64,000 nucleotides of DNA from a phage. Of the stretch, positions 20,704 through 42,154 are shown one piece after another. The stretch lies in the sequence record PX667085.1, one strand, 5' to 3'. Both the position numbers and the translations under genes were made by a program. The number at the start of each line of letters is the position of its first letter. Within the stretch, counting starts at the first letter, position 1. Below the pieces are notes generated by a model. It saw only the letters and a list, made by a program, of their open reading frames with translations. It searched no databases and had not been told where the DNA came from.

Positions 20704-21189
20704 ATGTTTCAAGTAAATGTCAATGTGCATAATAGTTACTCTGATTGTGAAACGTGTGGCTATAATTCATCTAATGTTGTTCGTATTAGTGGCGATTTAG
20801 GAGAAGCTTCTTTTGGAGAAGAAGCAAGTTGCTTTAGTGGTATGGATGCAGAATGGAATGATATTGCACATTGGTTAGTGAGCAAACTAAAAGAAAAAGA
20901 GAAACCATTTCCTACTCTGCTTGATCGTTCTCTTGTGGAAGATGCAGGTAAAGCATATGCAGACTATGCGTATGCAGACGGGAAATATTTGGAAGATGAT
21001 AAGGCTAACCATTTGCTTTATGTTTACTATGAAGCTGAATCTGCCTACGATAATTATTACAGCATGTCTAACATCCTACGTCTGTTTGCAGAGTTTGATA
21101 TTTATTTCGAAGTAGAATTTTCAGAAGATGATACTTACGAGTACAATTCTTATGATCCATTTGAGGAGGAAGAATGCCAAGACGAGTGA
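20704..21189 (+). CDS. hypothetical acidic protein, translationally coupled to Sir2
   Basis: 161-aa ORF overlapping the Sir2 start by 16 bp. Confidence 0.55.
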   Translation: MFQVNVNVHNSYSDCETCGYNSSNVVRISGDLGEASFGEEASCFSGMDAEWNDIAHWLVSKLKEKEKPFPTLLDRSLVEDAGKAYADYAYADGKYLEDDKANHLLYVYYEAESAYDNYYSMSNILRLFAEFDIYFEVEFSEDDTYEYNSYDPFEEEECQDE

Positions 21190-26576: not shown

Positions 26577-26780
26577 TTACTCATTTCTACCTCCTTCGAT
26601 GCTTTGTGCCGTACCATCCCAAGCCATTAGAATATTTGCCAATAGTTCACGAGGCTCTTTAAACCAAACTTCCATTTCATCAAGAATCTCGTCCGTGTCG
26701 TAAGTATAACCTGGAACACCAAGTTCGCATTTCTTAAGATAGCTTTCTAACCAGCGGTGATAATTCTTAACCCCATTCAT
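26577..26780 (-). CDS. hypothetical protein
   Basis: 67-aa ORF. Confidence 0.4.
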   Translation of the reverse strand: MNGVKNYHRWLESYLKKCELGVPGYTYDTDEILDEMEVWFKEPRELLANILMAWDGTAQSIEGGRNE

Positions 26781-27107
26781 ACTGTGCTACCTTTTCTTTT
26801 ACCCAATCTACACGATCTTTATCATAATGTTGAGTGCCAAGGAAAAGACCATTGTGGAAACTTTCCTCACCGAAAGGATAAATTGGATCTAAACCATCTT
26901 CTTCAAACAACATTTTTAATCGATTTGATGTAGATTTCTTAGTTTCTGAGTTGTAGTTTGTGGTTATAAGCCAATCTTCCAAACAACGACACAAACCTTG
27001 ACGAGAATCCCAAGGAAAAACACAATCTCCGACAGGAGCTTGTTCCGCCCATTTCAACCAGCCTTTAAAAAAGTTATACAGTATATAGTCTTCAGTGTAA
27101 TACATTA
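26767..27107 (-). CDS. paralog-family protein A (GLC / PFx / WVKEK motifs)
   Basis: Shares FxxW...GLCxCL...YPF...DRVDWVKEKV with six other ORFs; start at ATG after AAGGAGGAG. Confidence 0.55.
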
Positions 27108-27156
27108 TCTCCTCCTTTACGTATACAATAACACCCCGAAGAACGGGGTGCAACTG

Positions 27157-27768
27157 TTATTTAATCTGTTTAAAAATTTCGTTTGGAACGGTACCGTTTA
27201 AAATACCTTCTACGATCTCTTGTGCAGACGTGTAAGAGAGTCCAAAAGAAGCTACGCCTAAAATTGCCTCCTTCAAAGGATCTGGCAGGGGTTCAAAATT
27301 ACCTGCAACAAAGCCACCTGCACAAGCAGCACCTTCATCATCCCAGAAAACAACTGCTACATCGTTACCATGCGAAGTTGTGCGATGTGCAATAACTTCA
27401 ACTTCGGTGCCTTCTTTAGGAACAGAATAAGAACTGTCCCAAGAATATCTTTCCAAGTCAGGAACAAAGATAACCTTTTCGCCTACTGGCGGCAGTTCAC
27501 AACGATAATACCAAGAATTTTTTTCGTTCATTGTTTTATTTTCCTCCGCGTCTTCAAAAGTAACGATCCAATCGTAGCCGTAAGAAAACGGATATTTTAG
27601 ATCTAAAGAATAAGTTTGACCTAGATCATCCTCAACAAGAACCATCCTGTCAAAGTTTGCGATGTTAGGATTATGTTTAATGATAGGGTATGTTTCCCCT
27701 ACAGTAAATTGTCCCAAATGGTAAAGTTCATCTCTCCAAGTAATTTGGATATGAGTGCATTGAATCAT
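27157..27768 (-). CDS. hypothetical protein
   Basis: 203-aa ORF. Confidence 0.55.
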   Translation of the reverse strand: MIQCTHIQITWRDELYHLGQFTVGETYPIIKHNPNIANFDRMVLVEDDLGQTYSLDLKYPFSYGYDWIVTFEDAEENKTMNEKNSWYYRCELPPVGEKVIFVPDLERYSWDSSYSVPKEGTEVEVIAHRTTSHGNDVAVVFWDDEGAACAGGFVAGNFEPLPDPLKEAILGVASFGLSYTSAQEIVEGILNGTVPNEIFKQIK

Positions 27769-27772
27769 AAAA

Positions 27773-28045
27773 TCACCCCCAAGAAATATTTATATATCTT
27801 ACAATGTTTGCACTGTCTAAAGCCATGTTTGCACCACACCCACGCTCGCGCCAGTAACTAACAATACCTTCACAGATGCTCTCTTGTATCTTCTTATCAC
27901 TTGGCATTTCTAGTATAAGACTTGGGTTGTGGATGTTTATGTTATAATATCCTTCCTCTGCGGCTTGAGCTACCAATTTACTTACTTTTTCAAAGTACGG
28001 GGAATTAGTGGCATCTGCCATTGTTTTTAAGGTTTGTCTATCCAT
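27773..28045 (-). CDS. hypothetical protein
   Basis: 90-aa ORF. Confidence 0.5.
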   Translation of the reverse strand: MDRQTLKTMADATNSPYFEKVSKLVAQAAEEGYYNINIHNPSLILEMPSDKKIQESICEGIVSYWRERGCGANMALDSANIVRYINISWG

Positions 28046-28410
28046 TATTCTGCCTCATCATAGAAGAAATCCAACTCTTGTTCCAGTTGTTTAACTCGAT
28101 CCTTAACCCACTGTACACGTTTTTCATTAAACATGCAACGTTTTTCCTTACACTCTTGCTCAAAAGATTTTGCTGTGTTAAATGGGAAAGTTGTATCTAA
28201 GCCAGCGTTTTCAAAACTGGCTAATTGCATACCATAAACAGAATATGCTAGAGAATGCTCTGCCCGAAATTCATCACTTATATACATACGCAGACCTCGG
28301 CATAAGCCAACATCAGCGTAACCACTTTCTCTTGGAAAGAGACGGAGGTGTTCTAACCAATTATTATAGAAATCTAAAAGAATCCTCTTACACTTCAAAT
28401 CGATTGTCAT
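28045..28410 (-). CDS. paralog-family protein B (GLC / PFN / WVKDR motifs)
   Basis: LLDFYNNWL...VGLCRGL...FPFN...KRVQWVKDRV; start at ATG after AGGAG. Confidence 0.55.
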   Translation of the reverse strand: MTIDLKCKRILLDFYNNWLEHLRLFPRESGYADVGLCRGLRMYISDEFRAEHSLAYSVYGMQLASFENAGLDTTFPFNTAKSFEQECKEKRCMFNEKRVQWVKDRVKQLEQELDFFYDEAE

Positions 28411-28810
28411 AAAAAGTTTCTCCTTCATCAAACAAGTTGGCAAGATTGTTCACGGCAATCTGGGTGGAAAGAAGACAACTGTTTGCAGACACATAAGCAC
28501 GAGCTATTTTGTAAACATAAACTTTCGTATTACAATTGTCTAGGATCGGAAGACTTTCGTCGATAGCATCTATAACACTAAACATCACATCTAAAACTTT
28601 AATGGTGAGTGTTGTATTTGTATCTTCGTAACCTTTTTCAATCAGACCTGAATAGAAGGTATAGTCCTCAACAGTTCGTCGTTTAAATTGGCGCATAAAA
28701 TCGGAACCATCTGTAGCAGAATTGAACAAATTTTCAAAAAATACGTCCCATCCTGCAAAAAGGGCTGATAGCATGATTAAGTGATCTATAGATTCATTTT
28801 CTTGTTTCAT
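28388..28810 (-). CDS. hypothetical protein
   Basis: 140-aa ORF. Confidence 0.5.
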   Translation of the reverse strand: MKQENESIDHLIMLSALFAGWDVFFENLFNSATDGSDFMRQFKRRTVEDYTFYSGLIEKGYEDTNTTLTIKVLDVMFSVIDAIDESLPILDNCNTKVYVYKIARAYVSANSCLLSTQIAVNNLANLFDEGETFYDNRFEV

Positions 28811-28818
28811 ATCCTCTC

Positions 28819-29490
28819 CTATTTAATGTTCAGTCTGGCACACAAACGAGAAACAGTCTTAGCATCCCATTTACCACCACGTGCTGTTGCTATTTTCTTA
28901 CTATTGAATTTTTCAGCAATAGTTTTGTAAGGTGTATTTAAATCTCTAAGGATCTCCAAACGTTCACGAAATGTCTCTGCAAAAGCGTCTGCTTTAACAG
29001 AGTTGTATTCCATTTTTCCTTTTCTACGTGCAGCGGCAGTTTTAGGATTAGCACTGCCTAATAAAACACCTTTGCTTTTTGCTACAGCAAGACCCTTTTT
29101 AATACGATCAGCAATACCTCTAACTTCTTGTTCAGCCAGAACAGATAGAAGCTGTATAACCATTTTATCTGCGTCTGGCATGATGGCTATCTTAACATCG
29201 ATCATCTCCAGAAGAGTTGCTACGGAGGCGTTGTTACGACCCAAGCGGTCAACTTTAGCTACCAATAAAGTTGCTCCGGTAGCTTTACACATTTCAACCG
29301 CTTTGACCAGTTCTTTACGTTGCTTCCAATCGCCCTTACCCGAATAGTATTCAGAAAATTGACCAATAACTTCAGCATCAGGCACAGAGTCTAAGAAGTA
29401 ACGGATATCGTTCTCTTGGCTCTCCATACCATATTGTGCCTCACCTTTTTTCTGTTTAGAAAGACGACTGTAAACAACAAACTTTTTCAT
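28819..29490 (-). CDS. small serine recombinase (resolvase/invertase family) with C-terminal HTH
   Basis: VYSRLSKQ (catalytic Ser region), LLVAKVDRLGRN, C-terminal basic HTH-like segment; ATG after GGAGTGG. Confidence 0.7.
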   Translation of the reverse strand: MKKFVVYSRLSKQKKGEAQYGMESQENDIRYFLDSVPDAEVIGQFSEYYSGKGDWKQRKELVKAVEMCKATGATLLVAKVDRLGRNNASVATLLEMIDVKIAIMPDADKMVIQLLSVLAEQEVRGIADRIKKGLAVAKSKGVLLGSANPKTAAARRKGKMEYNSVKADAFAETFRERLEILRDLNTPYKTIAEKFNSKKIATARGGKWDAKTVSRLCARLNIK

Positions 29491-29519
29491 AACCACTCCT
29501 AAACTATTACTGTATTCTC

Positions 29520-29548
29520 ACTTTACAAAACGAATAAACACTTGTCAA
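29520..29548 (-). promoter_or_regulatory. sigma70-type promoter TTGACA-17-TAAAGT for recombinase gene
   Basis: Hexamers read on minus strand; no hairpin cassette here. Confidence 0.5.
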
Positions 29549-29560
29549 GGTATTTATTAT

Positions 29561-29773
29561 TTACAGCCATTCTACTCTTAAGCAGTATTCCTCGACATGT
29601 TGTTTACGCTTGTTTTTGTCTATGTAAGTGTATTCAACAAATGTCCCAAGATAGTCCTTGTCTACATTGTGTGGGCTATTGATTGGACATTTAGTACGAC
29701 AAACCCGTTGCCACTGACGAAGAATTACGGCTTTGTTTTTAGGATCAAAGGGATGAGGGTAATGTGCCTTCAT
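29561..29773 (-). CDS. hypothetical protein
   Basis: 70-aa ORF. Confidence 0.45.
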   Translation of the reverse strand: MKAHYPHPFDPKNKAVILRQWQRVCRTKCPINSPHNVDKDYLGTFVEYTYIDKNKRKQHVEEYCLRVEWL

Positions 29774-30097
29774 TCACGACTCCTGTTTTAGTCGAAAAAT
29801 ATTTTGAATAACGAGAGATGTATAGTTATCACCTAGTCCCATAAGTTCTACTTCCAAGTTTCGAATATCTTCCACCGTAGGAGGATATGTTGGTAAAAAT
29901 GCTTGAGCGTTACCAGACCCCACCTCATTGCTGTAAGCAGTTGTAAAATTGTAAGATACAAAACATGAAACACCTTTTTGTCGGTACCCGATTAATCGAC
30001 GAATACACCAGATAAGAGCCAAACCTATGAGGACACCTCCTAAACCAGCTAACAAGAAGGATAAGTTCATAATAGCTTCGTTAACAACTGCTTGCAT
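29774..30097 (-). CDS. membrane protein (one predicted TM helix)
   Basis: LSFLLAGLGGVLIGLALIWCI hydrophobic segment. Confidence 0.5.
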   Translation of the reverse strand: MQAVVNEAIMNLSFLLAGLGGVLIGLALIWCIRRLIGYRQKGVSCFVSYNFTTAYSNEVGSGNAQAFLPTYPPTVEDIRNLEVELMGLGDNYTSLVIQNIFRLKQES

Positions 30098-30107
30098 TCT
30101 TTTCTCC

Positions 30108-30455
30108 TTAGTTATGTAAACCCAAATGTGCTACAACTTCTCTACGATAAGATAACTGCATAGCGATTTTATAGCCAGGATGAAAACCATTTACATCAAT
30201 GTCATCAAACCAAACCTCAAACGAACCGTGCTTAAGAGTCATTAAGTTGATATACCATTCAATAGTATAATGATCGTTAGCGATACCTTCGATGTAAAAT
30301 TCTCGACAACAGTGAGATAAATCTTCACTTGTTTCACGTTTCCAGTCTTTGATAGCACCCTTCTCTTTGGCTTTATTCAGAATGTGGATCAGGTCTTCAA
30401 CTTGCATATTCTCTCCTTTAGTTCCAACTAATAACGATGTGTTTGATAATCCCAA
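30108..30455 (-). CDS. hypothetical protein
   Basis: 115-aa ORF. Confidence 0.5.
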   Translation of the reverse strand: MGLSNTSLLVGTKGENMQVEDLIHILNKAKEKGAIKDWKRETSEDLSHCCREFYIEGIANDHYTIEWYINLMTLKHGSFEVWFDDIDVNGFHPGYKIAMQLSYRREVVAHLGLHN

Positions 30456-30972
30456 AAATACTGTGCTCTGCGGTTGCCAATGTTACATCCAAACCTTTTG
30501 CACGTAGTATTGTAGCTACAACATTTGCCCCTCTTTTCTGTTCACTTATCTGTTCATAAGAAGAAGGGTTATTGCACAAACCAAAACTGGAAGGTTCAAA
30601 GTATTTTTCAAACTTCCCTTGTTCCGCACAATCTTCAATCTCTAACAGAACGGCGTCTACCATTTCAGTAAAATGGGAATTTGCTTGCAGTGCTTTATTA
30701 CGCAGTTTATCACGTAAACTTCCCGTAGATTCTTCCTGCTCTTCTGTCTGTCCATCTTCACAGAAAGGATGAAGTTCAGCCCAATCCCAAGCATCTCCTT
30801 CTAAAGCAAATGGAGTGTTGTAATTGAAGAAAGTGCAGCGCGGATATTCCCCGTTGAAAGAATCTTTCAGCAGAATATATTTCTTACCGTTTGCATGGAA
30901 GAGTTCTCCTTTGATAACCTTACCTACAAGGATATCACTGTTAGTGGAACGGGTGCAAATAAACTTTTTCAT
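30418..30972 (-). CDS. hypothetical protein
   Basis: 184-aa ORF. Confidence 0.5.
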   Translation of the reverse strand: MKKFICTRSTNSDILVGKVIKGELFHANGKKYILLKDSFNGEYPRCTFFNYNTPFALEGDAWDWAELHPFCEDGQTEEQEESTGSLRDKLRNKALQANSHFTEMVDAVLLEIEDCAEQGKFEKYFEPSSFGLCNNPSSYEQISEQKRGANVVATILRAKGLDVTLATAEHSIFGIIKHIVISWN

Positions 30973-31026
30973 GATTTTCTCCTCTCTGTTTCGATGAGAT
31001 GATTATGACAAAGACAAATCCTTCTG

Positions 31027-31353
31027 TCAACCCATTATTTCTTCTGCTACACGTTCTTTTACCCAGTTCACACGATCCACATTCAAATGACAACGGCTTT
31101 TTTCCGCTTCTAAGGTGTACTTTCCAAAATTACTGTTGAAAGGCAACACCATAACCAAACCTTTGAGGTAGAACTGCTCATGCATTTCATCCAGTACAGG
31201 TTCGTATCGTTCGCTTTCTCCCATGTCGTAAAAATCATAGAGGTTCGTGCACAAACCTGTGCAACGGGTGAACGGTTCACCTTCAGGAGCACCAGCTTCC
31301 AACCATGCCAAATACGTGCGGTAAAATGTTAATAGTTCTTCGCTCATTTCCAC
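31027..31353 (-). CDS. paralog-family protein C
   Basis: FYRTYLAWL...GLCTNL...LPFN...CHLNVDRVNWVKERV. Confidence 0.6.
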   Translation of the reverse strand: MEMSEELLTFYRTYLAWLEAGAPEGEPFTRCTGLCTNLYDFYDMGESERYEPVLDEMHEQFYLKGLVMVLPFNSNFGKYTLEAEKSRCHLNVDRVNWVKERVAEEIMG

Positions 31354-31556
31354 TCTCCTTCGTGATAGTAAACCTCAAAAGAATAGTAAGTGAACATGCT
31401 CATTGTAACACCTGCCATTTCTGGATCAAAGGGGGTGTTGTTATACATGTCAACTACTGCCTGACCCGCTGCTTTGGCATGTGCTGCTGAATCACAGGCA
31501 CAAACATCTTTCTCCCACGGAAACTTGCCATCATACTTAAGACGGACAATCCACAT
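31344..31556 (-). CDS. hypothetical protein
   Basis: 70-aa ORF. Confidence 0.45.
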   Translation of the reverse strand: MWIVRLKYDGKFPWEKDVCACDSAAHAKAAGQAVVDMYNNTPFDPEMAGVTMSMFTYYSFEVYYHEGEWK

Positions 31557-31558
31557 GC

Positions 31559-31786
31559 TTATTCCTCCATCTCAAACCATTCAGGGAACACTTTATGGAA
31601 TACACGGGTTGTTTCCAAAAGGAATTCCAATTCTTTTTCCAGATTTGCGTTCCAATCGTGCACTTTAACATTGATTGCCAATGCACTTGCACGGCGACTT
31701 AATTCTTGACAGATTGGATCACGCAGAACTATTGAGTCGTAAAACTGACAAACAGCCTCAAGTTCATACCAGTTATAATCCGACAT
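31559..31786 (-). CDS. hypothetical protein
   Basis: 75-aa ORF. Confidence 0.45.
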   Translation of the reverse strand: MSDYNWYELEAVCQFYDSIVLRDPICQELSRRASALAINVKVHDWNANLEKELEFLLETTRVFHKVFPEWFEMEE

Positions 31787-32112
31787 TATTCATCCTCCTC
31801 TGCAATACGATCTCTTACCCAATTAATCCTGTCCACGTTCAGGTGACATACCTCTGCATCTGATTCTAAGACATATGCATCGTAGTTCTCATTGAAAGGG
31901 AGTTCTTGACTCAACCCTTTGTAGTAAAACTGTGAGTGCATTTCGTCTGACAAGGTTGTTATAAGGAGATTGTAGCCATCTGCGTGCACATAATCGAACA
32001 AGTTGGCACACAAACCGCAATCTCGCCGAAAAGGTTTACCATCAGGAGCACCAACATCAATCCATGCTAGATAAATTTTATAAAACTCCATCAACCCTGT
32101 GCTTGTTTTCAT
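31786..32112 (-). CDS. paralog-family protein D
   Basis: FYKIYLAWI...GLCANL...LPFN...CHLNVDRINWVRDRI; closest to C. Confidence 0.6.
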   Translation of the reverse strand: MKTSTGLMEFYKIYLAWIDVGAPDGKPFRRDCGLCANLFDYVHADGYNLLITTLSDEMHSQFYYKGLSQELPFNENYDAYVLESDAEVCHLNVDRINWVRDRIAEEDE

Positions 32113-32350
32113 TTAGCCACCTCGTTAGTTTTTCTTGCTCTTTGTTTGCGCGTTCTAAGCTTCTAAACTTTAAACAAAGGGAACGAGAATCCCTACCCAT
32201 GCACAAGCTTTCATCTAAGCTGTGCTCCCCAACCAACCAAAGAGAATATGTTTGAACATCTAACCCATAGTTTCTGTCTTTCCATAATCTCACCCCAAGA
32301 ACATCAAAAGGCGCTTCCGCGACTAAAGAAAGAAACCGATCTTTATTCAT
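32078..32350 (-). CDS. hypothetical protein
   Basis: 90-aa ORF. Confidence 0.45.
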   Translation of the reverse strand: MNKDRFLSLVAEAPFDVLGVRLWKDRNYGLDVQTYSLWLVGEHSLDESLCMGRDSRSLCLKFRSLERANKEQEKLTRWLNENKHRVDGVL

Positions 32351-32412
32351 ATTACACCACCTTGCTCACGTTGATAATGTATGTATACCATACATAAAAT
32401 AAATGTCAAGGC

Positions 32413-32613
32413 TTATCGACACAGATAGTTGTAACGATCTGCTTTATCCTCTGCTTCAGCAAAGTCAGCAATCAAGGAAGTTTTGAGTTCTTCCAACTCT
32501 TTCACCCAAGAGTCGTAATCGTCCTGTGTTTCTCCAATAGTTTGGAGAAAACAATCGTCGTAGCCAATAGACATGGCTAACTCGATAATACGTTCCAGTT
32601 TTTCTTCCATCAT
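32413..32613 (-). CDS. hypothetical protein
   Basis: 66-aa acidic ORF. Confidence 0.45.
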   Translation of the reverse strand: MMEEKLERIIELAMSIGYDDCFLQTIGETQDDYDSWVKELEELKTSLIADFAEAEDKADRYNYLCR

Positions 32614-32972
32614 TTCTCTCCTTCTACAGGCTTCTGTTTAACATAAAAGTAAGCACCACGAGCAAGATACAAATCATGTTCAATATCGCTCACAGGAAAA
32701 CCATCTGGATTTTTAAAACCATCTTCTACAGCCAAAATGAGAGATCGTAAACTGATAGCTAACAACTCCATTTGATCTTGTAGTTTTCTATTTTCTGCGT
32801 AAAGGTTTTTGCATTTTTGTTCTGCATTTTTCCATTGTTCTAATGCATGATCATAGCGGTGCATAAGAATAGCTTTTTCTTGTTCACGCTTAAAAGTTTC
32901 TTCGCAAATGAAACCTGTGCCTAAACCAGTTTCTTCGTCTTTGACAAACACTTCAACAAAATCTTTAGACAT
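32610..32972 (-). CDS. hypothetical protein
   Basis: ORF; internal ATG with RBS GGAGATAAT chosen, removing overlap with upstream gene. Confidence 0.45.
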   Translation of the reverse strand: MSKDFVEVFVKDEETGLGTGFICEETFKREQEKAILMHRYDHALEQWKNAEQKCKNLYAENRKLQDQMELLAISLRSLILAVEDGFKNPDGFPVSDIEHDLYLARGAYFYVKQKPVEGEK

Positions 32973-32973
32973 A

Positions 32974-33237
32974 TTATCTCCTATTTGCTTTCGGATACTC
33001 CCAACCCTCTGGGAGATCTTCTTTACACATCCACTCAAAAGGCCAGCGACAATAACTGTGCCACTTTCCATTGAGATACAAACAATCTTCATCTACTGGT
33101 CCACAAGGGTTGATAACTACAACACACCCTTTTGCTCGCCAATATTGAACTATTTCAGGGTAAAAACAAGAAACGTCGGTCCACTCCCAAATACGTTCAT
33201 CATTCAAACGGTATGCTGCTGGCAATGTCTCTTTCAT
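32974..33237 (-). CDS. hypothetical protein
   Basis: 87-aa ORF. Confidence 0.45.
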   Translation of the reverse strand: MKETLPAAYRLNDERIWEWTDVSCFYPEIVQYWRAKGCVVVINPCGPVDEDCLYLNGKWHSYCRWPFEWMCKEDLPEGWEYPKANRR

Positions 33238-33241
33238 ATTA

Positions 33242-33688
33242 TTAAACCTCTGTCAAAGAGAAACGCCAATCCTTACTACTACCTACGCCAAGGAAGATAT
33301 AGTCTCCGGTACTAACGGAAATACGCCAAGCGGGAATCCAATCAGGAATCTCTGGCTTATGGCTGTAACCATAACGATCACCATCCGAGTCTGTTGCAAT
33401 ATAATTAACAAATTCAGGAACATCTAAAGTTTCACCTTGATACTCTACACGCTTGAAGCCATCTTTCACTTCTTTCTCACCTTCTACCAGACAAGCAAGA
33501 AGTTTGATGTGAGGGCAAGTGAAATCTTGTCCTGGATAACGTGAACGGATATCAGTTAACAATGCGATCACAGCATCCGATAACTCTTTATAATCCTCAT
33601 ATCTTACAAATGTGCCTTCTGTCGGATCATCAGGACACAAACGCCAAGCATCGTTGCAGTTTACAGCATAATGTCGCACTTTAGTCAT
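33242..33688 (-). CDS. hypothetical protein
   Basis: 148-aa ORF. Confidence 0.5.
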   Translation of the reverse strand: MTKVRHYAVNCNDAWRLCPDDPTEGTFVRYEDYKELSDAVIALLTDIRSRYPGQDFTCPHIKLLACLVEGEKEVKDGFKRVEYQGETLDVPEFVNYIATDSDGDRYGYSHKPEIPDWIPAWRISVSTGDYIFLGVGSSKDWRFSLTEV

Positions 33689-33698
33689 AAATACCCCC

Positions 33699-34097
33699 TT
33701 ATCGTTGCGTACAATCGGCTTCTAGAGTAAGAACATTCGTTATTGTTTTATCATTTTTTAGAAATGCAAACCAAGCTAAAGTGTCTCGATACTCTGTGCG
33801 CATCATCACAACTTCAGTAGTGCCAATAAATTGTTGTGAACCGTACATAGCACTACCATCTTTACTTTTTTCTCCTGTGTGTTGCAGAATGCCACTCATC
33901 AAAGCACCACCTGAATTTTTAAGGATAAAGGAGTTATCTTTATTAATGACAACAGAAGCCATTTTCTTAGGACCAGAAATCACTTCACCTTTCAGATTTT
34001 TAACAACCACATCTGACACACACTCATAAACTTGAGACGCATTTGCTGTTCCAAGTGATGCAATGAGTAACAAGAAACCTACAATGATCTTTTTCAT
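33699..34097 (-). CDS. secreted/periplasmic protein (signal peptide)
   Basis: MKKIIVGFLLLIASLGTANA signal-peptide-like N-terminus. Confidence 0.55.
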   Translation of the reverse strand: MKKIIVGFLLLIASLGTANASQVYECVSDVVVKNLKGEVISGPKKMASVVINKDNSFILKNSGGALMSGILQHTGEKSKDGSAMYGSQQFIGTTEVVMMRTEYRDTLAWFAFLKNDKTITNVLTLEADCTQR

Positions 34098-34193
34098 ATA
34101 AACTCTCCTCTTTATTTACCCGACGCGCCCCCTGTTGGGCGGAAAGGGTTGTACGCAAAATTTTTAGCTCCAATCGTCGGGTGTCCCGACTCC

Positions 34194-34400
34194 TTACGCT
34201 TTTAATGTTTTAACAGAATGACAAGCTTTGCAAACCATAACCGGAACAAGTTCATCTCCATTATCCGCATAAATCACTGTTTTCTTCATTCTGCCACCAC
34301 ATGAACAATACTCTGTATGATCCACTGGAATATTAAATATTCCGTAATCACTTTCATACTGTTTCTTACATATGGACACTGCTTTTGTAAAACAAGACAT
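34194..34400 (-). CDS. small zinc-ribbon protein
   Basis: CKKQ...CSCGG...CKACH. Confidence 0.45.
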   Translation of the reverse strand: MSCFTKAVSICKKQYESDYGIFNIPVDHTEYCSCGGRMKKTVIYADNGDELVPVMVCKACHSVKTLKA

Positions 34401-34402
34401 AC

Positions 34403-34624
34403 CTACTCCGAAAGAACATTCACTTCATCAGAGAAAAATACGTAATCACAACCTTCCCAAACATCTTCTTCAAACCACTCCCATCCCTCAACTTTGGACA
34501 TTTCTTCTATCGTAACAAAGAATGTTGTCATGTCATCGCTAACAAGATGTGCTTCAACAACAAAAGGAATCTGAACATTCTCAAAACCAACATAACCCAA
34601 TACATCACAAACTCTAATTTTCAT
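34403..34624 (-). CDS. hypothetical protein
   Basis: 73-aa ORF. Confidence 0.45.
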   Translation of the reverse strand: MKIRVCDVLGYVGFENVQIPFVVEAHLVSDDMTTFFVTIEEMSKVEGWEWFEEDVWEGCDYVFFSDEVNVLSE

Positions 34625-34625
34625 A

Positions 34626-34826
34626 TTATGCTCCTTTGTAGATTATGTTGGTGCGTTCACACTCTGCTACCAGCAAGCGATTAGCGATGTTGTCCATAGG
34701 AACATCAATCTCTACGCTCCAGGCGTTGATATACACTTCTTCAATCTTTGCTCCAAGCGTTTGTGCGATCAGGGCAACAGCCCCAGCATATTCAAGTTTA
34801 ATCTCAATTACCATTTTGCACCTCAA
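34626..34826 (-). CDS. hypothetical protein
   Basis: 66-aa ORF. Confidence 0.45.
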   Translation of the reverse strand: MRCKMVIEIKLEYAGAVALIAQTLGAKIEEVYINAWSVEIDVPMDNIANRLLVAECERTNIIYKGA

Positions 34827-34828
34827 GG

Positions 34829-35029
34829 TTATTTATCTTGCTTGTATCTTACAAGACGATCACACTCTAGGTCAAGAAATTTCTCCGCATTTCGTTCATG
34901 TTTGAGCACAATACATTGTTCTTTCCAGTCTGTAGCTCTTTGCTGCGCTGCTCCTGGGTCAAAATCCCAAAGCCATGCCGCGAAAAGAACAACCATAACA
35001 ATTACTAAGAAACTAAACACTATTGGCAT
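34829..35029 (-). CDS. small membrane protein
   Basis: MPIVFSFLVIVMVVLFAAWLW; ATG after AGGAGGA. Confidence 0.45.
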   Translation of the reverse strand: MPIVFSFLVIVMVVLFAAWLWDFDPGAAQQRATDWKEQCIVLKHERNAEKFLDLECDRLVRYKQDK

Positions 35030-35334
35030 TGCACATCCTCCTGTGTAGCATGGTCTTTTACCCATTTTATACGGGCAGCATTCAAATGCAATAGCCCGTT
35101 TCTTTGTGCAAAATCATATTTAAACCAGTCTCCGTCATCAAACGGGTATTCTTCAGACAATCCTGCCTCACGGAATTGCATTTGCATTTCATAATTTAGA
35201 TCATCATAACCTCCAGTCCAAAGGTAGAGGCAACTACATAATCCTTTATCATGCCAGAAAGGATTATTATCTGGAGCACCAGCTAATAGCCAGTTATGAT
35301 ATGCCTGATAAAATTCTTTAAGTTCTTCTGACAT
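35020..35334 (-). CDS. paralog-family protein E
   Basis: FYQAYHNWL...GLCSCL...YPF...LHLNAARIKWVKDH. Confidence 0.55.
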   Translation of the reverse strand: MSEELKEFYQAYHNWLLAGAPDNNPFWHDKGLCSCLYLWTGGYDDLNYEMQMQFREAGLSEEYPFDDGDWFKYDFAQRNGLLHLNAARIKWVKDHATQEDVQCQ

Positions 35335-35511
35335 TTAACCTCCTGTATACAGTGTTGAAAGATACACAGCAAAAGCATTCTCGGCTGTTTTCACCTCCTC
35401 TTCAAGATCTTCACGCTCTGCTGGCGTTAATGCATTCCGCACAGCAGCGTCTGCTTCTCGGATTTTTCTTACTAAACGTGAAACATCTTTCAATTGTTGA
35501 AAAGTAGCCAT
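35335..35511 (-). CDS. hypothetical small protein (58 aa)
   Basis: Short ORF translated by hand; abuts paralog E start. Confidence 0.3.
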   Translation of the reverse strand: MATFQQLKDVSRLVRKIREADAAVRNALTPAEREDLEEEVKTAENAFAVYLSTLYTGG

Positions 35512-35526
35512 AATCTTTCTCCTGTT

Positions 35527-35886
35527 TTAGTTAGTGTCACGCCATTCGGCAATCTCTTCGGCTAAACGATCACAAGAATCGAAAGCCACTTTACCTTCAC
35601 TAGGGTAGTTCCAGAAGACACCCCGTGAATCTGTAATATTTATATGATACTTGTCCCACATCTCTTTTGCAAGTGGTCGATCAACATATCCTTCAAAATA
35701 TACTTCAGTTTCTGCTGAATACGGAGTGTAATCGCTTGCAGCAAAAACGTCCTGGAAGATGACCATCACGTTACGTGTTGTGCTTGGGTACATCAATTGG
35801 TGAAATTTCAACAACCTTCCGTTGATCCTAACAACATCTCCTTCAAACAAGGAGATATCTTTTACTTTACGAAATTCTCCGCTCAT
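35527..35886 (-). CDS. hypothetical protein
   Basis: 119-aa ORF. Confidence 0.5.
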   Translation of the reverse strand: MSGEFRKVKDISLFEGDVVRINGRLLKFHQLMYPSTTRNVMVIFQDVFAASDYTPYSAETEVYFEGYVDRPLAKEMWDKYHINITDSRGVFWNYPSEGKVAFDSCDRLAEEIAEWRDTN

Positions 35887-35895
35887 TTTACCCCC

Positions 35896-36087
35896 TTAAT
35901 ACACATCTCCTACAAACCAGATTTCTGGATCGCCATACTGATCCTTCTCGTAAGATTTATAGACACTACAGCAATATTTCAAAACACCATCGACAAGGAT
36001 TGTTGATCTTTCCTCTGGAATCTCTGTGATTTCACCTTTACGGGTTTCGAAGATGGTATCACCCTTTTCAATTAGTCTGATTTTCAT
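35896..36087 (-). CDS. hypothetical protein
   Basis: 63-aa ORF. Confidence 0.45.
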   Translation of the reverse strand: MKIRLIEKGDTIFETRKGEITEIPEERSTILVDGVLKYCCSVYKSYEKDQYGDPEIWFVGDVY

Positions 36088-36286
36088 ATCGTCCTTCCTT
36101 CAATGCGAGTAATGCATTCACCAGATTATCAACACCTTGATCATCCAGTGCAATAACATCAAAGTTAAACCCTGTATCAGTTGGGACTTTACGTTTTATA
36201 GTGTAATAGTCTCCTTCATGACGTTCAACATCCGCGTATGGGTAACTGCTGTTTGGATCATGTTTTACGCGAATAGATGTTTTCAT
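36068..36286 (-). CDS. hypothetical protein
   Basis: 72-aa ORF. Confidence 0.45.
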   Translation of the reverse strand: MKTSIRVKHDPNSSYPYADVERHEGDYYTIKRKVPTDTGFNFDVIALDDQGVDNLVNALLALKEGRYENQTN

Positions 36287-36756
36287 GTTTTGTTCTCCTC
36301 TTTAATTGCAACACGGAACTTATTAGCTTCTCTCACCTGGTGCATGAAGTCTTTCTTCTTCATAATCCCGATGGACATTTCATCCAGTTCTTCTGGGTGA
36401 ATCTGAAGATTACGGCGATCAGACAGGAACCAAGTTTTCTCCCACCAGAAGCGTTGATCCTCCTCTTCGTGATATTTATATGTCTCTTTTTCTTCTTCTG
36501 TGAGAAGTTTGAATCGGTTTTTCGCTTCGTACCTCATTGGGGTATGAAAAGGAATGCCATTATCACCATTATACACCGCAGACGTACCTAGACAATAACC
36601 AGTTTCTGCGTCGATCATTTGGTAGTGAAACTCACACTCCAGTTCAACATACTCTAAATCCCCATAAAAATCACTAATCAAGAAAGCAATGTAAGTTTCA
36701 CCGTGTTCGGGAACAAATTCTTGCTTTGTCAACATCTCCAGTTTCAAACCTGCCAT
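36283..36756 (-). CDS. hypothetical protein
   Basis: 157-aa ORF. Confidence 0.5.
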   Translation of the reverse strand: MAGLKLEMLTKQEFVPEHGETYIAFLISDFYGDLEYVELECEFHYQMIDAETGYCLGTSAVYNGDNGIPFHTPMRYEAKNRFKLLTEEEKETYKYHEEEDQRFWWEKTWFLSDRRNLQIHPEELDEMSIGIMKKKDFMHQVREANKFRVAIKEENKT

Positions 36757-36768
36757 TGCTTTCTCCTT

Positions 36769-37020
36769 TTAGTCAAACCAGTTGTATTCAGAAGGGTAAC
36801 GAGCGTAGTTTGGCTTGTACCCCAGCCTTTTCATCTTGACAGACATACGAGTGAAGCCAAAGGTTGTTTTGCCCTTAGACATAAACTTCTTCCCACTCTT
36901 CATTGGCTTCTTAGGGTCTTTGATCGTCTGGTGTAACGCTCGCGCAAGCCATAAAGTGTATGCGCTCGGCACTTGATTAACTTTCATCTTGTTACCTTTC
37001 ATCATTTCACCTCGGACCAA
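36769..37020 (-). CDS. hypothetical basic protein
   Basis: 83 aa, Lys-rich. Confidence 0.45.
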   Translation of the reverse strand: MVRGEMMKGNKMKVNQVPSAYTLWLARALHQTIKDPKKPMKSGKKFMSKGKTTFGFTRMSVKMKRLGYKPNYARYPSEYNWFD

Positions 37021-37301
37021 TCAATAGTGATCCACTCGTATGCCCCGTTCAGATCCATTTCTTTATAAACAACAAGCCCACGCTCACGAAGAATTGCTAC
37101 TGCTTCATCCATCCATTTCACCTGATTGTAGATTTCCCCTGGGTGAGTAGGAGAATTATCCAAACCAAAATCAGATGGTGTGAAATTTCTTGAAGAGTTC
37201 CCCGCTCGTGCTTCAGCAAAACATGTCTCGATCACTTCTTCAACAGGGAAGTTGAAGGAAGCTTCTTTTGCAATACGGCGTAACTGTTCAGTCAGATTCA
37301 T
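37002..37301 (-). CDS. hypothetical protein
   Basis: 99-aa ORF. Confidence 0.5.
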   Translation of the reverse strand: MNLTEQLRRIAKEASFNFPVEEVIETCFAEARAGNSSRNFTPSDFGLDNSPTHPGEIYNQVKWMDEAVAILRERGLVVYKEMDLNGAYEWITIDWSEVK

Positions 37302-37328
37302 CTTATTCTCCTTTCGTTGTGTGAAACA

Positions 37329-37766
37329 TTACAGCAGATCTAATGCTTTCAACTCTTCTTTCAATGATTCAGGCAGGTCACATTCAATGTCAATCAGAGA
37401 TAACAAGTGACCAACAATGCCTTCCAGATGTTGATACTCACTATAACTTATAAATTCAGAATTGTAAACAGAAACATCCTTAGTTTCTTTCACAACTTCC
37501 CCCGCAGACACGCACATAAAAAAGTTACGCTCTCCGCGAGCTAACAATATCTCCCAACTCCTGAACGGATACTGTCCAGCTTCAATAATATCCCCGCTGT
37601 CCAATAAAGTCAATGAGCAAACAGACCCTGATTCACTAACATCTTCGACGCGGAAACAAGACCCTTCAATCAAAGCTGCCATTTTGAAATTTTCATCAGA
37701 GATCATAGAGAAAGCTTCACATGCAGCTTTACTTTTGAAACAGTAAACAGCATTAACTTTAAACAT
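37329..37766 (-). CDS. MFK-paralog 1
   Basis: Starts MFKVNAVYCFKS; related N-terminus to next two ORFs. Confidence 0.5.
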   Translation of the reverse strand: MFKVNAVYCFKSKAACEAFSMISDENFKMAALIEGSCFRVEDVSESGSVCSLTLLDSGDIIEAGQYPFRSWEILLARGERNFFMCVSAGEVVKETKDVSVYNSEFISYSEYQHLEGIVGHLLSLIDIECDLPESLKEELKALDLL

Positions 37767-37778
37767 AACATTCCCCTT

Positions 37779-38234
37779 TTAAACAAAAGATACGCCGATG
37801 GTAGCAACAACCAAACGTTTATAAACTTCAACCTCTTCTGTAGGATTAGCCATTTTATGCTCTGCTGCTTCTTTCAAAGCTTCTTCATAACTTTCAAATC
37901 CAGAAATACAGGTGTCATCAGTCATTACAACATACCACTCTTCTTTTGTTGTATCAACAGGTTCTTCTTGGGGTTTTCCACGACCACCACGAATACCACC
38001 GTCAACAAAATAATCTATATGAGCAGAATTGATTATGTAACGATCCCCATCACTAGCAGTGATAACACCGTCTCTCCCTATCACAACAATTGACAAGATA
38101 TTACCATTTGCATCAGTGCTCAACACCTCGAAAAAATTCTCTCCAATGATAGAAGCAATACTGTTATCAAAGGTAGAATATAGTCGCATATAATCTTCAT
38201 CCTGGAAACGGTAGACATGACCTTCTTTGAACAT
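37779..38234 (-). CDS. MFK-paralog 2
   Basis: MFKEGHVYRF...IGENFFEV...W.VV...VE.Y.R.VVA shared with 38240..38695. Confidence 0.55.
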   Translation of the reverse strand: MFKEGHVYRFQDEDYMRLYSTFDNSIASIIGENFFEVLSTDANGNILSIVVIGRDGVITASDGDRYIINSAHIDYFVDGGIRGGRGKPQEEPVDTTKEEWYVVMTDDTCISGFESYEEALKEAAEHKMANPTEEVEVYKRLVVATIGVSFV

Positions 38235-38239
38235 TGGCT

Positions 38240-38695
38240 TTACTCCTTATCAATAGTGATTGTGGCGTTTGCTACTGCAACACGAGCGTAAATCTCAACC
38301 GTCTTCGACGGATAATCCTTCTTAGCTTTTGTAGCGACTTCAGAAGCTTTTTCAAAACTAGAACAAACATCTACACACTCTGATCCTACGATCACAACAT
38401 GCCATTGTGGTTCTGCTTTACCCATTGTTTCCTCCTTTACTTCTTCAAAATATTTAAATTCTTCGTTATCAATCAAATAAGTATATGAATTAAACCCTGG
38501 GGTAACACCTGCTGTATAAAGGGTACCATTGATATAAAACTCAAGAACATGACCATACTTATCATCTGTATTCATAACTTTGAAAACTTCGTTTCCAATC
38601 GCTTGGCAAACAGCAATATTTGCTTTGTCATGTGTTGCCATATCTCCTTGGTCAGCAACGCTTTTGAATTTATAAGTAAACCCTACTTTAAACAT
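38240..38695 (-). CDS. MFK-paralog 3
   Basis: MFKVGFTYKF...IGNEVFKV...; start at ATG after AAGGAG. Confidence 0.55.
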   Translation of the reverse strand: MFKVGFTYKFKSVADQGDMATHDKANIAVCQAIGNEVFKVMNTDDKYGHVLEFYINGTLYTAGVTPGFNSYTYLIDNEEFKYFEEVKEETMGKAEPQWHVVIVGSECVDVCSSFEKASEVATKAKKDYPSKTVEIYARVAVANATITIDKE

Positions 38696-38882
38696 GATGT
38701 GCTCCTTCTTGTTCAAGAGTAAAAGGAATGATCTCACCATAGCTGTATTGCATGGCATCCACTTCTGCTTCTGCACGTTGTGCTAGTTCTAATGTTGCAC
38801 AGATCTTGTAAGGAACAGTGCTGCATTGGCTCCAACCTGGGGTGTTCTTAGTCACTAAATATACAGTAGTTCCTTTATTCAT
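38688..38882 (-). CDS. hypothetical protein
   Basis: 64-aa ORF. Confidence 0.4.
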   Translation of the reverse strand: MNKGTTVYLVTKNTPGWSQCSTVPYKICATLELAQRAEAEVDAMQYSYGEIIPFTLEQEGAHHV

Positions 38883-39336
38883 AACTTTCTCCTCCTAGTT
38901 CATCATACCATTTCAAAGCGTCTTTTGGAAGCATACCAAAATCTTCTTTCAGTTCTTTTTCAATCTCTTCTTGCATTTCCATTAGCATTTTCAATTGACG
39001 GACTTTTTTGTGCATAGCCACATTCCTTTCATTAAGGTTTGTCACTACATTATTTGCACGACTCGGTGGAAATGACAAAGGTTTCACGGGAAGATAATCT
39101 TCGATATTATCTAATGCGTTACGAAAATTATGATCCAAGAAACGCACATCTACACGATTGTAATCGGCAGCTACAACAGTGAACACTTTAAACGGCACGT
39201 TGGATAAAGTATGTTGCACACAGACAGTACCCATATTACCTTCAATTTTACTGGTAACTTCCAGCAAACCTGTATGAGCACTAACATAATCGTGAACACA
39301 TTGCACATAAGCTGCCAGTATAGTGAATTGTCTCAT
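38875..39336 (-). CDS. hypothetical protein
   Basis: 153-aa ORF. Confidence 0.5.
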   Translation of the reverse strand: MRQFTILAAYVQCVHDYVSAHTGLLEVTSKIEGNMGTVCVQHTLSNVPFKVFTVVAADYNRVDVRFLDHNFRNALDNIEDYLPVKPLSFPPSRANNVVTNLNERNVAMHKKVRQLKMLMEMQEEIEKELKEDFGMLPKDALKWYDELGGESYE

Positions 39337-39572
39337 TTTCTACCTCCCCATAATGCTAACATTTTATTGAAAATAGAAACGCGTCGTGCGCGAGATGCTA
39401 ATGTTATATTATCTTCCTCGGCACGTTGCAAGTAGCGATCACACTTAATCAAAGCTTGCGTCTTCTCTTTTAGAGTTTGCGTGTTCATCCACTCTGTCTC
39501 AGAGTAGTGATTGTAGAAGTATTCTGTATCCAGAACATTCATAGCTATCTCATTATCTACTGGAAGGATCAT
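39333..39572 (-). CDS. hypothetical protein
   Basis: 79-aa ORF. Confidence 0.45.
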   Translation of the reverse strand: MILPVDNEIAMNVLDTEYFYNHYSETEWMNTQTLKEKTQALIKCDRYLQRAEEDNITLASRARRVSIFNKMLALWGGRK

Positions 39573-39790
39573 TGTACCTGCTCCGCATCCTTCAAGTTTT
39601 TAATGAAGTAACGACCAACCGGATTCCCTCGGAAGTATTCGTTAATGAAATCGATAACACACGTTTCACTGCCTGTCACAACGGACGGCTTAAAGTTTTG
39701 GAATTCTACAGCTACACGGCTGGCTTTAGCCAGTGCTTGCACACGTGTAGGATCAGTCAAGAACATTGTGACAGTTTTCAAATTCTTCAT
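39569..39790 (-). CDS. hypothetical protein
   Basis: 73-aa ORF. Confidence 0.45.
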   Translation of the reverse strand: MKNLKTVTMFLTDPTRVQALAKASRVAVEFQNFKPSVVTGSETCVIDFINEYFRGNPVGRYFIKNLKDAEQVQ

Positions 39791-39834
39791 CTCCTCATTG
39801 GCTATCTGTTATGCCATCCATTATACAGACATTT

Positions 39835-40203
39835 TTATTCAATGCAAGCATTATTTGCATCTTCAATTCTGTCTTTCACCCACTGAAGACGTAACGTGTT
39901 GGTATGACACGCCAAGTTTATACACTCTGAAAGGTAATCCATGCAATCCGCATTGAACGGAAGATTATAGTCCAGCCCTGCACATGTAAATTGTTTCCTC
40001 ATTTCATATTTCAAACGGTCCAACAAACTATCCCGCCATCTTCTATCTTCTTCTCTAGTTGTCTCACCAACAAAATCATTTACATAATCTACCAGACAAC
40101 CACATAAGCCACTCGTTGTGCGATTCATTGCAGGATAGTTGGCAATCCATGCTTTATAGAAGCGAAGCAATGTTGCACTGCTCAACGGAATACTATTTGT
40201 CAT
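39835..40203 (-). CDS. paralog-family protein F
   Basis: FYKAWIANY...SGLCGCL...LPFN...CH...LRLQWVKDRI. Confidence 0.6.
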   Translation of the reverse strand: MTNSIPLSSATLLRFYKAWIANYPAMNRTTSGLCGCLVDYVNDFVGETTREEDRRWRDSLLDRLKYEMRKQFTCAGLDYNLPFNADCMDYLSECINLACHTNTLRLQWVKDRIEDANNACIE

Positions 40204-40537
40204 TTTTCTCTCCTTCGTAATCCTGAATTCTATCTAGCACCCATTGTATACGATGTTTGTTTTTATGGCAAATAAGTTTTTTATGTTCGAAGGTGTATTC
40301 TTCATAACCACCTTCATTGAACGGGAAATTGTAATCTAATCCTGCACCAATAAACTGGGATTTCATCTCTTGTTGTAGACGAGGTAACAGTTCATCAGGG
40401 TATGTTCCCTCTACATACTTAATCAAACATATGCACAAACCACTCGTTGTGTGACCTTCTACCTCACCAGCAAACCAAGCTTTGTAAAACTTCATTAGAC
40501 GTAAGCTACTCAAGGGAACATTTTTACTCTCTTGCAT
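40193..40537 (-). CDS. paralog-family protein G
   Basis: FYKAWFAGE...SGLCICL...FPFN...CH...HRIQWVLDRI; tandem with F. Confidence 0.6.
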   Translation of the reverse strand: MQESKNVPLSSLRLMKFYKAWFAGEVEGHTTSGLCICLIKYVEGTYPDELLPRLQQEMKSQFIGAGLDYNFPFNEGGYEEYTFEHKKLICHKNKHRIQWVLDRIQDYEGEKNDK

Positions 40538-40559
40538 GACAATCTCCTCTCATCGTTAG

Positions 40560-42030
40560 CCATCTTTCATGGCAATCATCAATCACCAACATCATACGAT
40601 CAATCTTCGGCAATTACAATCGAATTATCATAGGGGATTCCTATCAATTATCCTATATATACCGATTATTTTTGACACCCCATTCTTGTATAAAAAGTAA
40701 CCCAAAATATCTACGGGGAGAGATTATTTCGACACACCCTGTTTCATGGCAATCACGGCAAGAATATCTAATAGAATCAATATGATATGGCAAAAATCAT
40801 GGCGTATACGTAAGAAGTGCTTAACGCGAATTTTCGGGCCGTCAGGTCCACGCAGCGACAATTCCCAAATATCATGCGAATGAGAATAATTATCATTCGT
40901 ATTCAATGACTTATGCAAGGCTCATGCCAACGTAGCGACAAGGTGGGCCACTCGATTATAAATCACACAAACACTTATTTATCAATGGCTTGGCAACTTC
41001 ATCATATGACGGAACAATGTCAACTAATCCCGCTCATGACAAGCAGACTATTATTTATATGAGAATGATTATTATTTAAACGTTTATTAACATAAAAACT
41101 AAAATAAATCAAGATTATTCTGATTTTATTTACGTTTAAGAGAAGATGCTCAACATCCTACCGGATCGCCGTTGGCAATCCTCGGATATTTACGCCCCCA
41201 TGATTAAGGTTTATCTCTTTCTTAGTGCTCAACATTCCCGCCCGTGGCGGTAACATTTCGCCCCCAAAATTATTGACTTTTATTCTATTATGTGCATAGT
41301 GTGCAATGTATCGGAATGATGATAATCATCCTCCCATTGCCCCCAATAATTATTGCCATGCTAATGATTTCATATTGTAACCATTACAATGATTATTGTT
41401 ATTGCGCTAATGTTATGATCTTGGTAATTACATATAATGCTAATAATAAGCCAGCGCAATAAGTGTAAGCGTCATTACGCTTGCAATTATTGCAAGCTAC
41501 GCAGTAACAAGAAATAACCATCACCGATGGTTATGATTGTTGGGGTGTAGTTGGCTTATTATTAGCTCGCTATGTGTCCGGCATAGCGTGCTAATGATGA
41601 TCCTGGGAATGATTCGTTTTGTAATGATTTCATTCAGTCACTATTATGGCAATAGTTATTATTTTAATGGTTTCGTTTGTTATTGTTCGTTAGTTGGTTG
41701 TTTTGTCGTGTTATCGTTATCTTGCTTAGTATTCATCATGGTTTGATTGTTTGTCGTTATCAATCATCTTGCTATTATTCCTTTGATTATGATTAGTTTG
41801 CTTATTGTTTTAGGTTGTTGGTTAGTTAGTTGTTGCGAACTGTTATCAACATTATAGTTATGCGCTTATATTGCATATATAATCATGTATAGATGATAAT
41901 GGTTATCATTGCACTAGAAAGGAGGTAAAAGGGTGTTTTTGATGGTTTGTTGTTGGTTGTTGATCGATTTTAACCGCTATAAATGGCTCTCTAACAGCCT
42001 GTTACCCTGGGAGGTATGGTTATTCGTTTA
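40560..42030. repeat. 1.4-kb non-coding palindrome- and repeat-rich region (candidate origin/regulatory hub)
   Basis: No convincing ORF; GAGAATrATTATyATT at 40882 and 41061, ATGATAATCAT-type palindromes, T/G-rich short repeats. Confidence 0.5.
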
Positions 42031-42111
42031 ATGGTTGATTAGCTCGATACCGCGATTTATTCAATTTTGTTCTGTGTCGGTTTTTCATAGGGGAAAGCTA
42101 TCAACATTGTT

Positions 42112-42154
42112 CGGGCAAAAAGAAAGGGCGCTTGGTGCGCCCCTTGTTTTGTTG
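42112..42154. terminator. bidirectional intrinsic terminator
   Basis: GGGCGCTTGGTGCGCCCC hairpin flanked by A- and T-tracts. Confidence 0.65.

Follow-up and report, generated by a model that had tools for sequence, protein, structure and literature searches.

The DNA analysed here, called the window in the following, is a stretch of 64,000 nt from the phage sequence record PX667085.1. Between 22.3 and 40.5 kb it contains a dense run of about 50 small genes on the minus strand, and seven of these genes, designated A to G (Table 1), encode proteins of a single family. The block shares 98.5% identity with Escherichia phage Mt1B1_P17 (Stephanstirmvirinae, Phapecoctavirus) and matches 127 phage records in a public nucleotide comparison, and the window belongs to a large E. 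coli phage of the phAPEC8 group, Phapecoctavirus. All seven genes are labelled "hypothetical protein" in the annotated public records that were inspected. The analysis revealed that they encode copies, diverged long ago, of a predicted five-helix domain that is specific to phages, PHROG 2510.

The presence of seven homologous minus-strand open reading frames (ORFs) had been proposed in an original prediction made by a model from the sequence alone. All seven exist, and three comparisons agree on their relationship. When each protein was compared by BLASTP with the 674 six-frame ORFs of the window, the other six were recovered at E-values from 1e-39 to 4e-5. The one exception was the A-F pair (E 0.03), which is linked via the other copies, and no other ORF of the window fell below E 0.05. 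A hidden Markov model (HMM) built from the seven proteins yielded exactly seven matches in the window, and the independent profile PHROG 2510 matched all of them at E-values from 8e-25 to 3e-31, over profile positions of about 4 to 113. The homology behind the shared motifs is far beyond chance. The BLASTP identities also bore out that C/D and F/G are close pairs (51–52% and 46%, respectively) and that A and B are divergent (23–33% to the rest). The motifs themselves had been described only partly correctly. G-L-C-x-x-L, P-F, and R-x-x-W-V are invariant in the seven proteins, but E-M-x-x-Q is missing in A and B, and the Cys-His pair, which had been regarded as usual, is complete in only four of the seven copies (C, D, F, and G).

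A good Shine-Dalgarno (SD) motif precedes each of the seven genes, and the ratios of non-synonymous to synonymous polymorphism (pN/pS) of the orthologs, which were computed against five close relatives, are well below 1. The seven are real genes. The predicted coordinates were exact for B, D, E, F, and G, whereas the end of A had been placed at 27107 instead of 27105, out of frame by 2 nt. For C, translation most likely starts at the ATG at 31347 rather than at the GTG at 31353, because the SD motif GAAGGAGA abuts the GTG and the public annotation uses the ATG. The start of F overlaps the end of G by 11 nt. The seven proteins are acidic, with isoelectric points of 4.5–6.1 and net charges of -2 to -11, and neither a signal peptide nor a transmembrane segment was found in any of them. 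A hairpin resembling a terminator (27131–27151, minus strand, 8 bp including 6 G-C pairs) is located about 25 nt upstream of the start of A, and given this hairpin, A may be transcribed separately or by read-through.

Table 1. Genes of the seven-member family and the non-coding region upstream of gene G (aa, amino acids; E-values are those of the PHROG 2510 profile)
Feature	Position	Strand	Length	E-value	pN/pS	Remarks
A	26767-27105	minus	112 aa	6e-27	0.08	most divergent copy, 23-31% identical to the others; SD AAGGAGG; orthologs 94-100% identical in about 65 phage records
B	28045-28410	minus	121 aa	2e-26	0.03	divergent; Met in place of His; orthologs at least 97.5% identical in 65 records
C	31027-31353	minus	108 aa from GTG, 106 aa from ATG 31347	3e-31	0.58	pN/pS on few changes; nearest to D (51%); absent from phage vB_EcoM_REC
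D	31786-32112	minus	108 aa	5e-31	0.34	
E	35020-35334	minus	104 aa	8e-29	0.01	
F	39835-40203	minus	122 aa	1.5e-25	0.10	second gene of the tandem G-F
G	40193-40537	minus	114 aa	8e-25	0.08	first gene of the minus-strand block
Non-coding region	40538-42122	minus	about 1.6 kb			upstream of G; no ORF of at least 60 aa on the coding strand

The original prediction did not recognize the family. It is indeed uncharacterized, but it is catalogued: PHROG 2510 includes gp3 of coliphage N4, phAPEC8_0044, JJJB_0008 of phage JWAlpha, gp5 of JG068, and ORF5 of RSB1, and the seven proteins are direct members that have the length, the five predicted helices, and G-L-C, P-F, and R-x-x-W-V in common with the others. 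N4 gp3 (YP_950481; NC_008720, 1214–1528) was matched at E 8e-22 by a profile made from 119 family representatives, and it carries G-L-C, P-F-N, and C-H-L-N-x-x-R-I-x-W. Parts of this relationship had been noticed before. The JWAlpha record likens JJJB_0008 to phAPEC8_0044 and N4 gp3, and earlier annotators linked phAPEC8_0044 with N4 gp3 and JG068 gp5 (PMC3765740). Three further groups of unknown function, PHROGs 6418, 27059, and 2176, gave weaker yet significant matches for several of the seven proteins, down to E 3e-18. Their profiles are longer (140–231 positions), and they probably represent the same domain, either as sister subfamilies or in multi-domain versions.

The family is large. 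A HMMER search over 1.84 billion representative proteins retrieved 1,939 clusters (50% identity) at E-values of at most 1e-3, 1,031 of them at 1e-10 or below. Tandem fusions with two or three domains were present in at least 20 of the best 150 representatives. Every contig that was checked was phage-sized (at most 264 kb). With protein D as the query, tblastn found 244 phage records, which included Stephanstirmvirinae, N4-like phages, T7/phiKMV-like phages (RSB1, RHEph08), the 47–48 kb coliphages Sf12 and Bas79, which are presumably T1-like, and phages of Achromobacter, Rhizobium, Ralstonia, Erwinia, Klebsiella, Pseudomonas, and Delftia; structure matches in BFVD added phages of Burkholderia and Pectobacterium. 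Most other phages, including the small ones, have one copy or one tandem-fused gene, whereas the large Stephanstirmvirinae have several, and in Phapecoctavirus there are six to seven dispersed copies. Plasmid records contained a single match, next to genes for Phd/Doc, DUF968, and a PAPS-reductase-family protein, and this gene content suggests a phage-plasmid. When genome contigs were scanned with the phage-plasmid homolog, only its C-terminal extension matched, on two short contigs of metagenome-assembled genomes. A degenerate DNA pattern for C-H-L-N-x-x-R-I-x-W-V identified six IMG/VR loci, and a word-indexed homolog search with the alignment of the 119 sequences identified 16 proteins. The homolog of Bas79 (PQ850629.1, 4890–5291, plus strand, profile E 1.5e-32) is unannotated in its record, in which an antisense ORF, Bas79_0090, is annotated over the same DNA instead.

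Pfam and NCBIfam contained no match for the seven proteins above or near the curated cut-offs, and a Pfam scan of the 119 members gave no recurrent weak match, each weak match being confined to a single member. In PADLOC-DB, nothing was found at E-values up to 1 for any of the seven proteins. The family profile had no sequence match in the PDB.

AlphaFold2 predicted confident and closely similar structures for D, which serves as the reference for residue numbers and structure, and for A, the most divergent copy. The model of D has a predicted local distance difference test (pLDDT) score of 95.1 and a predicted template modelling (pTM) score of 0.88, with helices at residues 5–19, 34–42, 50–64, 77–85, and 93–107. 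The model of A (pLDDT 94.8, pTM 0.88) has five helices in the same order and spacing, and thus the single architecture that had been proposed for the family is also seen at the level of predicted structure. A Foldseek search against BFVD yielded 19 phage proteins at E-values of at most 1e-3, with query-normalized TM-scores of 0.71–0.87, but the predicted five-helix fold matched no solved structure in the PDB.

Conservation was analysed with the 119 representatives, most of which are 32–51% identical to D. Cys35, Pro72, Phe73, and Arg95 are invariant. Leu7, Phe10, Tyr11, Trp17, Gly33, Leu34, Phe62, Leu67, Asn92 (95%), Trp98, and Val99 are conserved in at least 90% of the representatives, and Ser4, Arg30, Glu57, Gln61, Tyr80, Glu83, and His90 in 70–90% (Gln61, Glu57, and His90 in 85–89%). 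The Cys and the His had both been called invariant, and this is true for Cys35, but His90 reaches only 85% and is replaced by Tyr, Phe, Met, Trp, Pro, or Val in the remaining 15% of the members, including paralog B, while the neighboring Cys89 is conserved in 44%. Helical wheels placed the conserved residues, including Cys35, Glu57, Gln61, and Arg95, on or at the edge of the hydrophobic faces. This placement suggests a buried polar network, but it would leave room for a pocket.

The conserved positions form a core that is shared by the paralogs, and the copies differ elsewhere. At 30 core positions, the seven proteins have an identity of 71%, which drops to 15% at 62 variable positions. The suggested repeated duplication under diversifying pressure is not supported on a recent time scale. 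The pooled pN/pS of the family is 0.11, compared with 0.10 for 34 neighboring genes, identity is only about 50% even in the closest pairs, and the orthologs of A and B stayed 94–100% identical in about 65 genomes. Gene E had 37 synonymous changes versus one non-synonymous change, and only C and D appear relaxed. Protein D is 41–44% identical to the homologs of the 47–48 kb coliphages, which is as close as it is to E and G and closer than it is to A and B. Therefore, the duplications or acquisitions must be much older than the genus.

The copy number is not entirely constant among the close relatives. Seven copies are present in Mt1B1_P17 and ETEC-TG, C is missing from REC, and a single gene occupies the site of G and F in BI-EHEC and Ro121lw. 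Two public proteins, P0007 and P0008, are clean G/F chimeras with single breakpoints; the loci considered alongside them were L006, 15599–15946, and L009, 15565–15948. P0007 consists of residues 1–7 of G followed by F, and P0008 joins the initial two thirds of G to the final third of F. Such chimeras match the expected outcome of unequal recombination within a tandem pair.

In several unrelated phages, the homologs are situated in early regions. N4 gp3 lies between gp2 and the RNA polymerase II genes gp15/16, in the left-end region. This end of N4 enters the host ahead of the rest, and the virion RNA polymerase transcribes the early genes that it carries (PMC4496689). The homolog of the N4-like phage JWAlpha is 2.4 kb from the left end. 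In the T7-like phage RSB1, the gp0.7-like kinase gene follows 0.5 kb downstream of ORF5, from which a single small ORF separates it, and in the phiKMV-like phage JG068, the homolog gp5 belongs to the left-end class I region (PMC3765740).

In the phage studied here, the block opens with G and F, which directly follow a non-coding stretch (Table 1). The block is likely read from this stretch, as a promoter or genome-terminus region, and the stretch is putatively associated with the family. It is A+C-rich on the minus strand and contains an 18-nt repeat (ATGAGAATGATTATTATT-like) in four copies as well as several inverted repeats, and a strong bidirectional terminator hairpin (42123–42145) marks its boundary. 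Four public linear records start or end near 41080–41150, about 600 bp upstream of G, and the stretch may hold a physical genome end. Genomes of Stephanstirmvirinae have been reported to end in direct terminal repeats (PMC12695924). From the position near this presumed genome end, we infer that the family is expressed early in this phage.

We hypothesize that the seven proteins are early cytoplasmic host-manipulation factors that use one rigid scaffold to present paralog-specific, individually conserved surfaces, possibly as oligomers. We favor this explanation, but hold it tentatively, as possible rather than probable. The proteins would be made early in infection and would act in the cytoplasm as stoichiometric factors, either in host takeover or in counter-defence. 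About 30 conserved residues would hold the scaffold together by the hydrophobic helix faces and a semi-buried polar network around Cys35, Glu57, Gln61, His90, Asn92, and Arg95, while the remaining, mostly exposed positions differ almost completely between paralogs and are constant within each ortholog group. Because the variable positions show this behavior, each copy may bind its own partner, which would be a case of subfunctionalization. The tandem fusions in other phages and the overlap of G and F suggest that the domains work as homo- or hetero-oligomers, with G and F probably being translationally coupled.

Several lines of evidence led to this hypothesis, namely the early-region position in four phage lineages, the small, acidic, and cytoplasmic nature of the proteins, the restriction to phages, the conserved core with divergent surfaces under purifying selection, and the recurrent tandem fusion. 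The role in host takeover or anti-defence that the original prediction had suggested fits the position of the family in the early-gene regions of unrelated phages. Four observations weigh against our explanation. The orthologs are under purifying selection and exhibit no signal of a recent arms race. The conservation of polar residues exceeds what a pure scaffold usually needs, and it would fit a catalytic or ligand-binding site equally well. The number of sigma-70-like promoters in the block (57) does not significantly exceed the expectation (47 +/- 6). Lastly, a literature search revealed no functional study of N4 gp3, PHROG 2510, or any other member, and neither transcript or other expression data nor interaction or phenotype data were found.

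The polar residues could alternatively belong to an active site, and the domain would then be a small thiol-dependent enzyme or a cofactor- or ligand-binding module built on Cys35, Arg95, Asn92, His90, Glu57, and Gln61, with the paralogs acting on different substrates or ligands, e.g., a host macromolecule, a nucleotide-derived immune signal, or a metabolite. The strong conservation described above points in this direction, as does the retention of the same residues in every repeat of the tandem fusions. Moreover, the JWAlpha homolog, which has Ser at position 35, keeps a thiol nearby with Cys at position 37, and Cys35 lies in the first turn of helix 2 of the model, at the N-terminus of the helix. 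Helix dipoles lower the pKa of thiols, and this might apply to Cys35. However, the proteins have only about 105 residues and no nucleotide-, metal-, or cofactor-binding motif, His90 is not retained throughout, the helical wheels turn Cys35, Glu57, Gln61, and Arg95 toward the hydrophobic faces, as in a putative buried structural network, and seven enzymes with the same site in one genome would be unusual. We regard an enzymatic or ligand-binding function, the main rival of our hypothesis, as unlikely. A related possibility, which we consider distinctly unlikely, is that a new fold carries a functional site on the invariant Cys/Arg pair, in an enzyme or in a pocket that recognizes a ligand or a protein, and that many virulent phages of Proteobacteria direct it at a conserved component of host immunity or housekeeping. 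The six to seven paralogs of Phapecoctavirus, alone or as mixed oligomers, would then provide combinatorial specificities.

A metal-binding or redox fold had been hinted at in the original prediction, on account of the Cys and His residues, and it was tested by counting candidate ligands. The invariance of Cys35, the presence of C-x-C plus C-H in F and G, which adds up to four potential ligands, and a very weak Pfam match of G to SufE (E 0.14) are compatible with a zinc or disulfide fold, possibly with a site between subunits. But 69 of the 119 members have at most two of the four candidate ligands (two in 62 members, one in 7), there is no sign of compensation between Cys37 and Cys89 (Fisher p = 0.79), and no CxxC motif was found. 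Because the ligands are few and compensation is missing, a classical metal site is not a feature of the family. In addition, the proteins are cytoplasmic and acidic, and no metal-binding or redox protein was identified among the fold matches listed, so that such a fold is highly improbable. The host also need not be the target at all. The proteins might be accessory factors of the phage's own early program (transcription, start of replication, or internalization of the genome), and the paralogs would then adapt different phage proteins. The orthologs are stable, core-like, and strongly conserved in the genus, as would be expected for such factors, and the neighbors of gp3 in N4, gp1 and gp2, are early transcription cofactors (PMC4496689). 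Yet a shared phage-internal partner is unlikely because the N4-like, T7-like, and T1-like carriers and the large myoviruses use entirely different transcription and replication strategies, and close relatives whose isolation as plaque formers shows them to be viable have lost or merged copies. We consider this explanation improbable.

The tentatively favored explanation, early host manipulation, invites a comparison with known early proteins. Ocr (gp0.3) is a class I early protein of T7-like phages. The PHROG 2510 proteins share with such class I proteins the slot in the first few kb at the left end, and they are likewise small, acidic, and cytoplasmic, but they have a conserved Cys/Arg core that is not seen in Ocr. 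No structure of Ocr, ArdA, or another DNA mimic was present among the PDB fold matches listed. Solved counter-defence proteins (anti-CRISPRs, Tad1/Tad2, Acb2, Gad1) are of a similar size class and are phage-restricted as well, and they are expected to be encoded among early or accessory genes. No sequence or fold similarity to counter-defence proteins was detected among the solved structures (PDB up to April 2026). Atd1, the sole anti-defence gene reported for Phapecoctavirus, was also considered, but it encodes a MazG-like enzyme that is unrelated to the family.

The seven genes are a real paralog set in a catalogued phage family with a predicted fold that has no solved relative, and they are a sound experimental lead, albeit not yet an extraordinary one. 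With about 1,900 clusters in N4-like, T7-like, and T1-like phages and large myoviruses of Proteobacteria, the family is among the larger uncharacterized families that are confined to phages. The classic coliphage N4 has a single copy, gp3, and thus a model system is at hand for genetic tests of the function, while the seven copies of Phapecoctavirus offer a natural set of different surfaces on a common scaffold. If the proteins act in counter-defence or host takeover, thousands of "hypothetical" early genes would gain an annotation, and this would be relevant for the choice of therapeutic coliphages, for which Phapecoctavirus isolates are often proposed. A functional site on the Cys/Arg pair would define a new class of counter-defence or host-takeover module. 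If the proteins are ordinary accessory proteins, they would be a tidy case of ancient duplication followed by purifying selection.

The family is by far the largest paralog family of the window, and the other paralog sets are pairs. There are some further relationships within the block. A second small family on the minus strand comprises the genes at 27773–28045, 30418–30972, and 37002–37301. Its 184-aa and 99-aa proteins match at E 4e-10, and the 90-aa third member is marginal (E 0.02–0.03), but has the common C-terminal pattern [IL]R(E/A)(R/K)G...I.(I/W)SW. Two of these three genes adjoin B and C directly downstream; a search for a conserved partner gene showed that the homologs in N4, JWAlpha, RSB1, and Bas79 have no member of the second family next to them. 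Two tandem paralogs on the minus strand (37779–38234 and 38240–38758) encode proteins of about 150–170 aa that begin with MFK(E/V)G, and the gene at 37329–37766 is possibly a third relative, judged from a resemblance by eye.

Upstream of the block, the plus strand carries genes of nucleotide metabolism for thymidylate synthase, both subunits of ribonucleotide reductase, a PhoH-like protein, and a Sir2-like protein. The Sir2-like gene (NAD-dependent deacetylase family; 21174–21989, PHROG 2162, E 3e-104) closes this module directly ahead of the orphan-gene block. A Pfam scan of ten larger block proteins gave a confident match only for a serine recombinase (28819–29490, minus strand, Pfam Resolvase, E 5e-18), which thus lies inside the block. 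The recombinase gene is very strongly conserved (pN/pS 0.01), in a phage from a group that is isolated as lytic, and its public labels vary between "methionine ABC transporter ATP-binding protein", "DNA invertase", and "resolvase". No tRNA gene was found across the whole window, and because more than 10 tRNA genes have been reported for genomes of Stephanstirmvirinae (PMC12695924), the tRNA cluster must sit elsewhere in the genome. An HNH-type endonuclease C-terminal region (PHROG 681) is common to the proteins encoded at 55496–56698 (minus strand) and 61484–62470 (plus strand), and the latter also has replication-initiator-like matches at its N-terminus.

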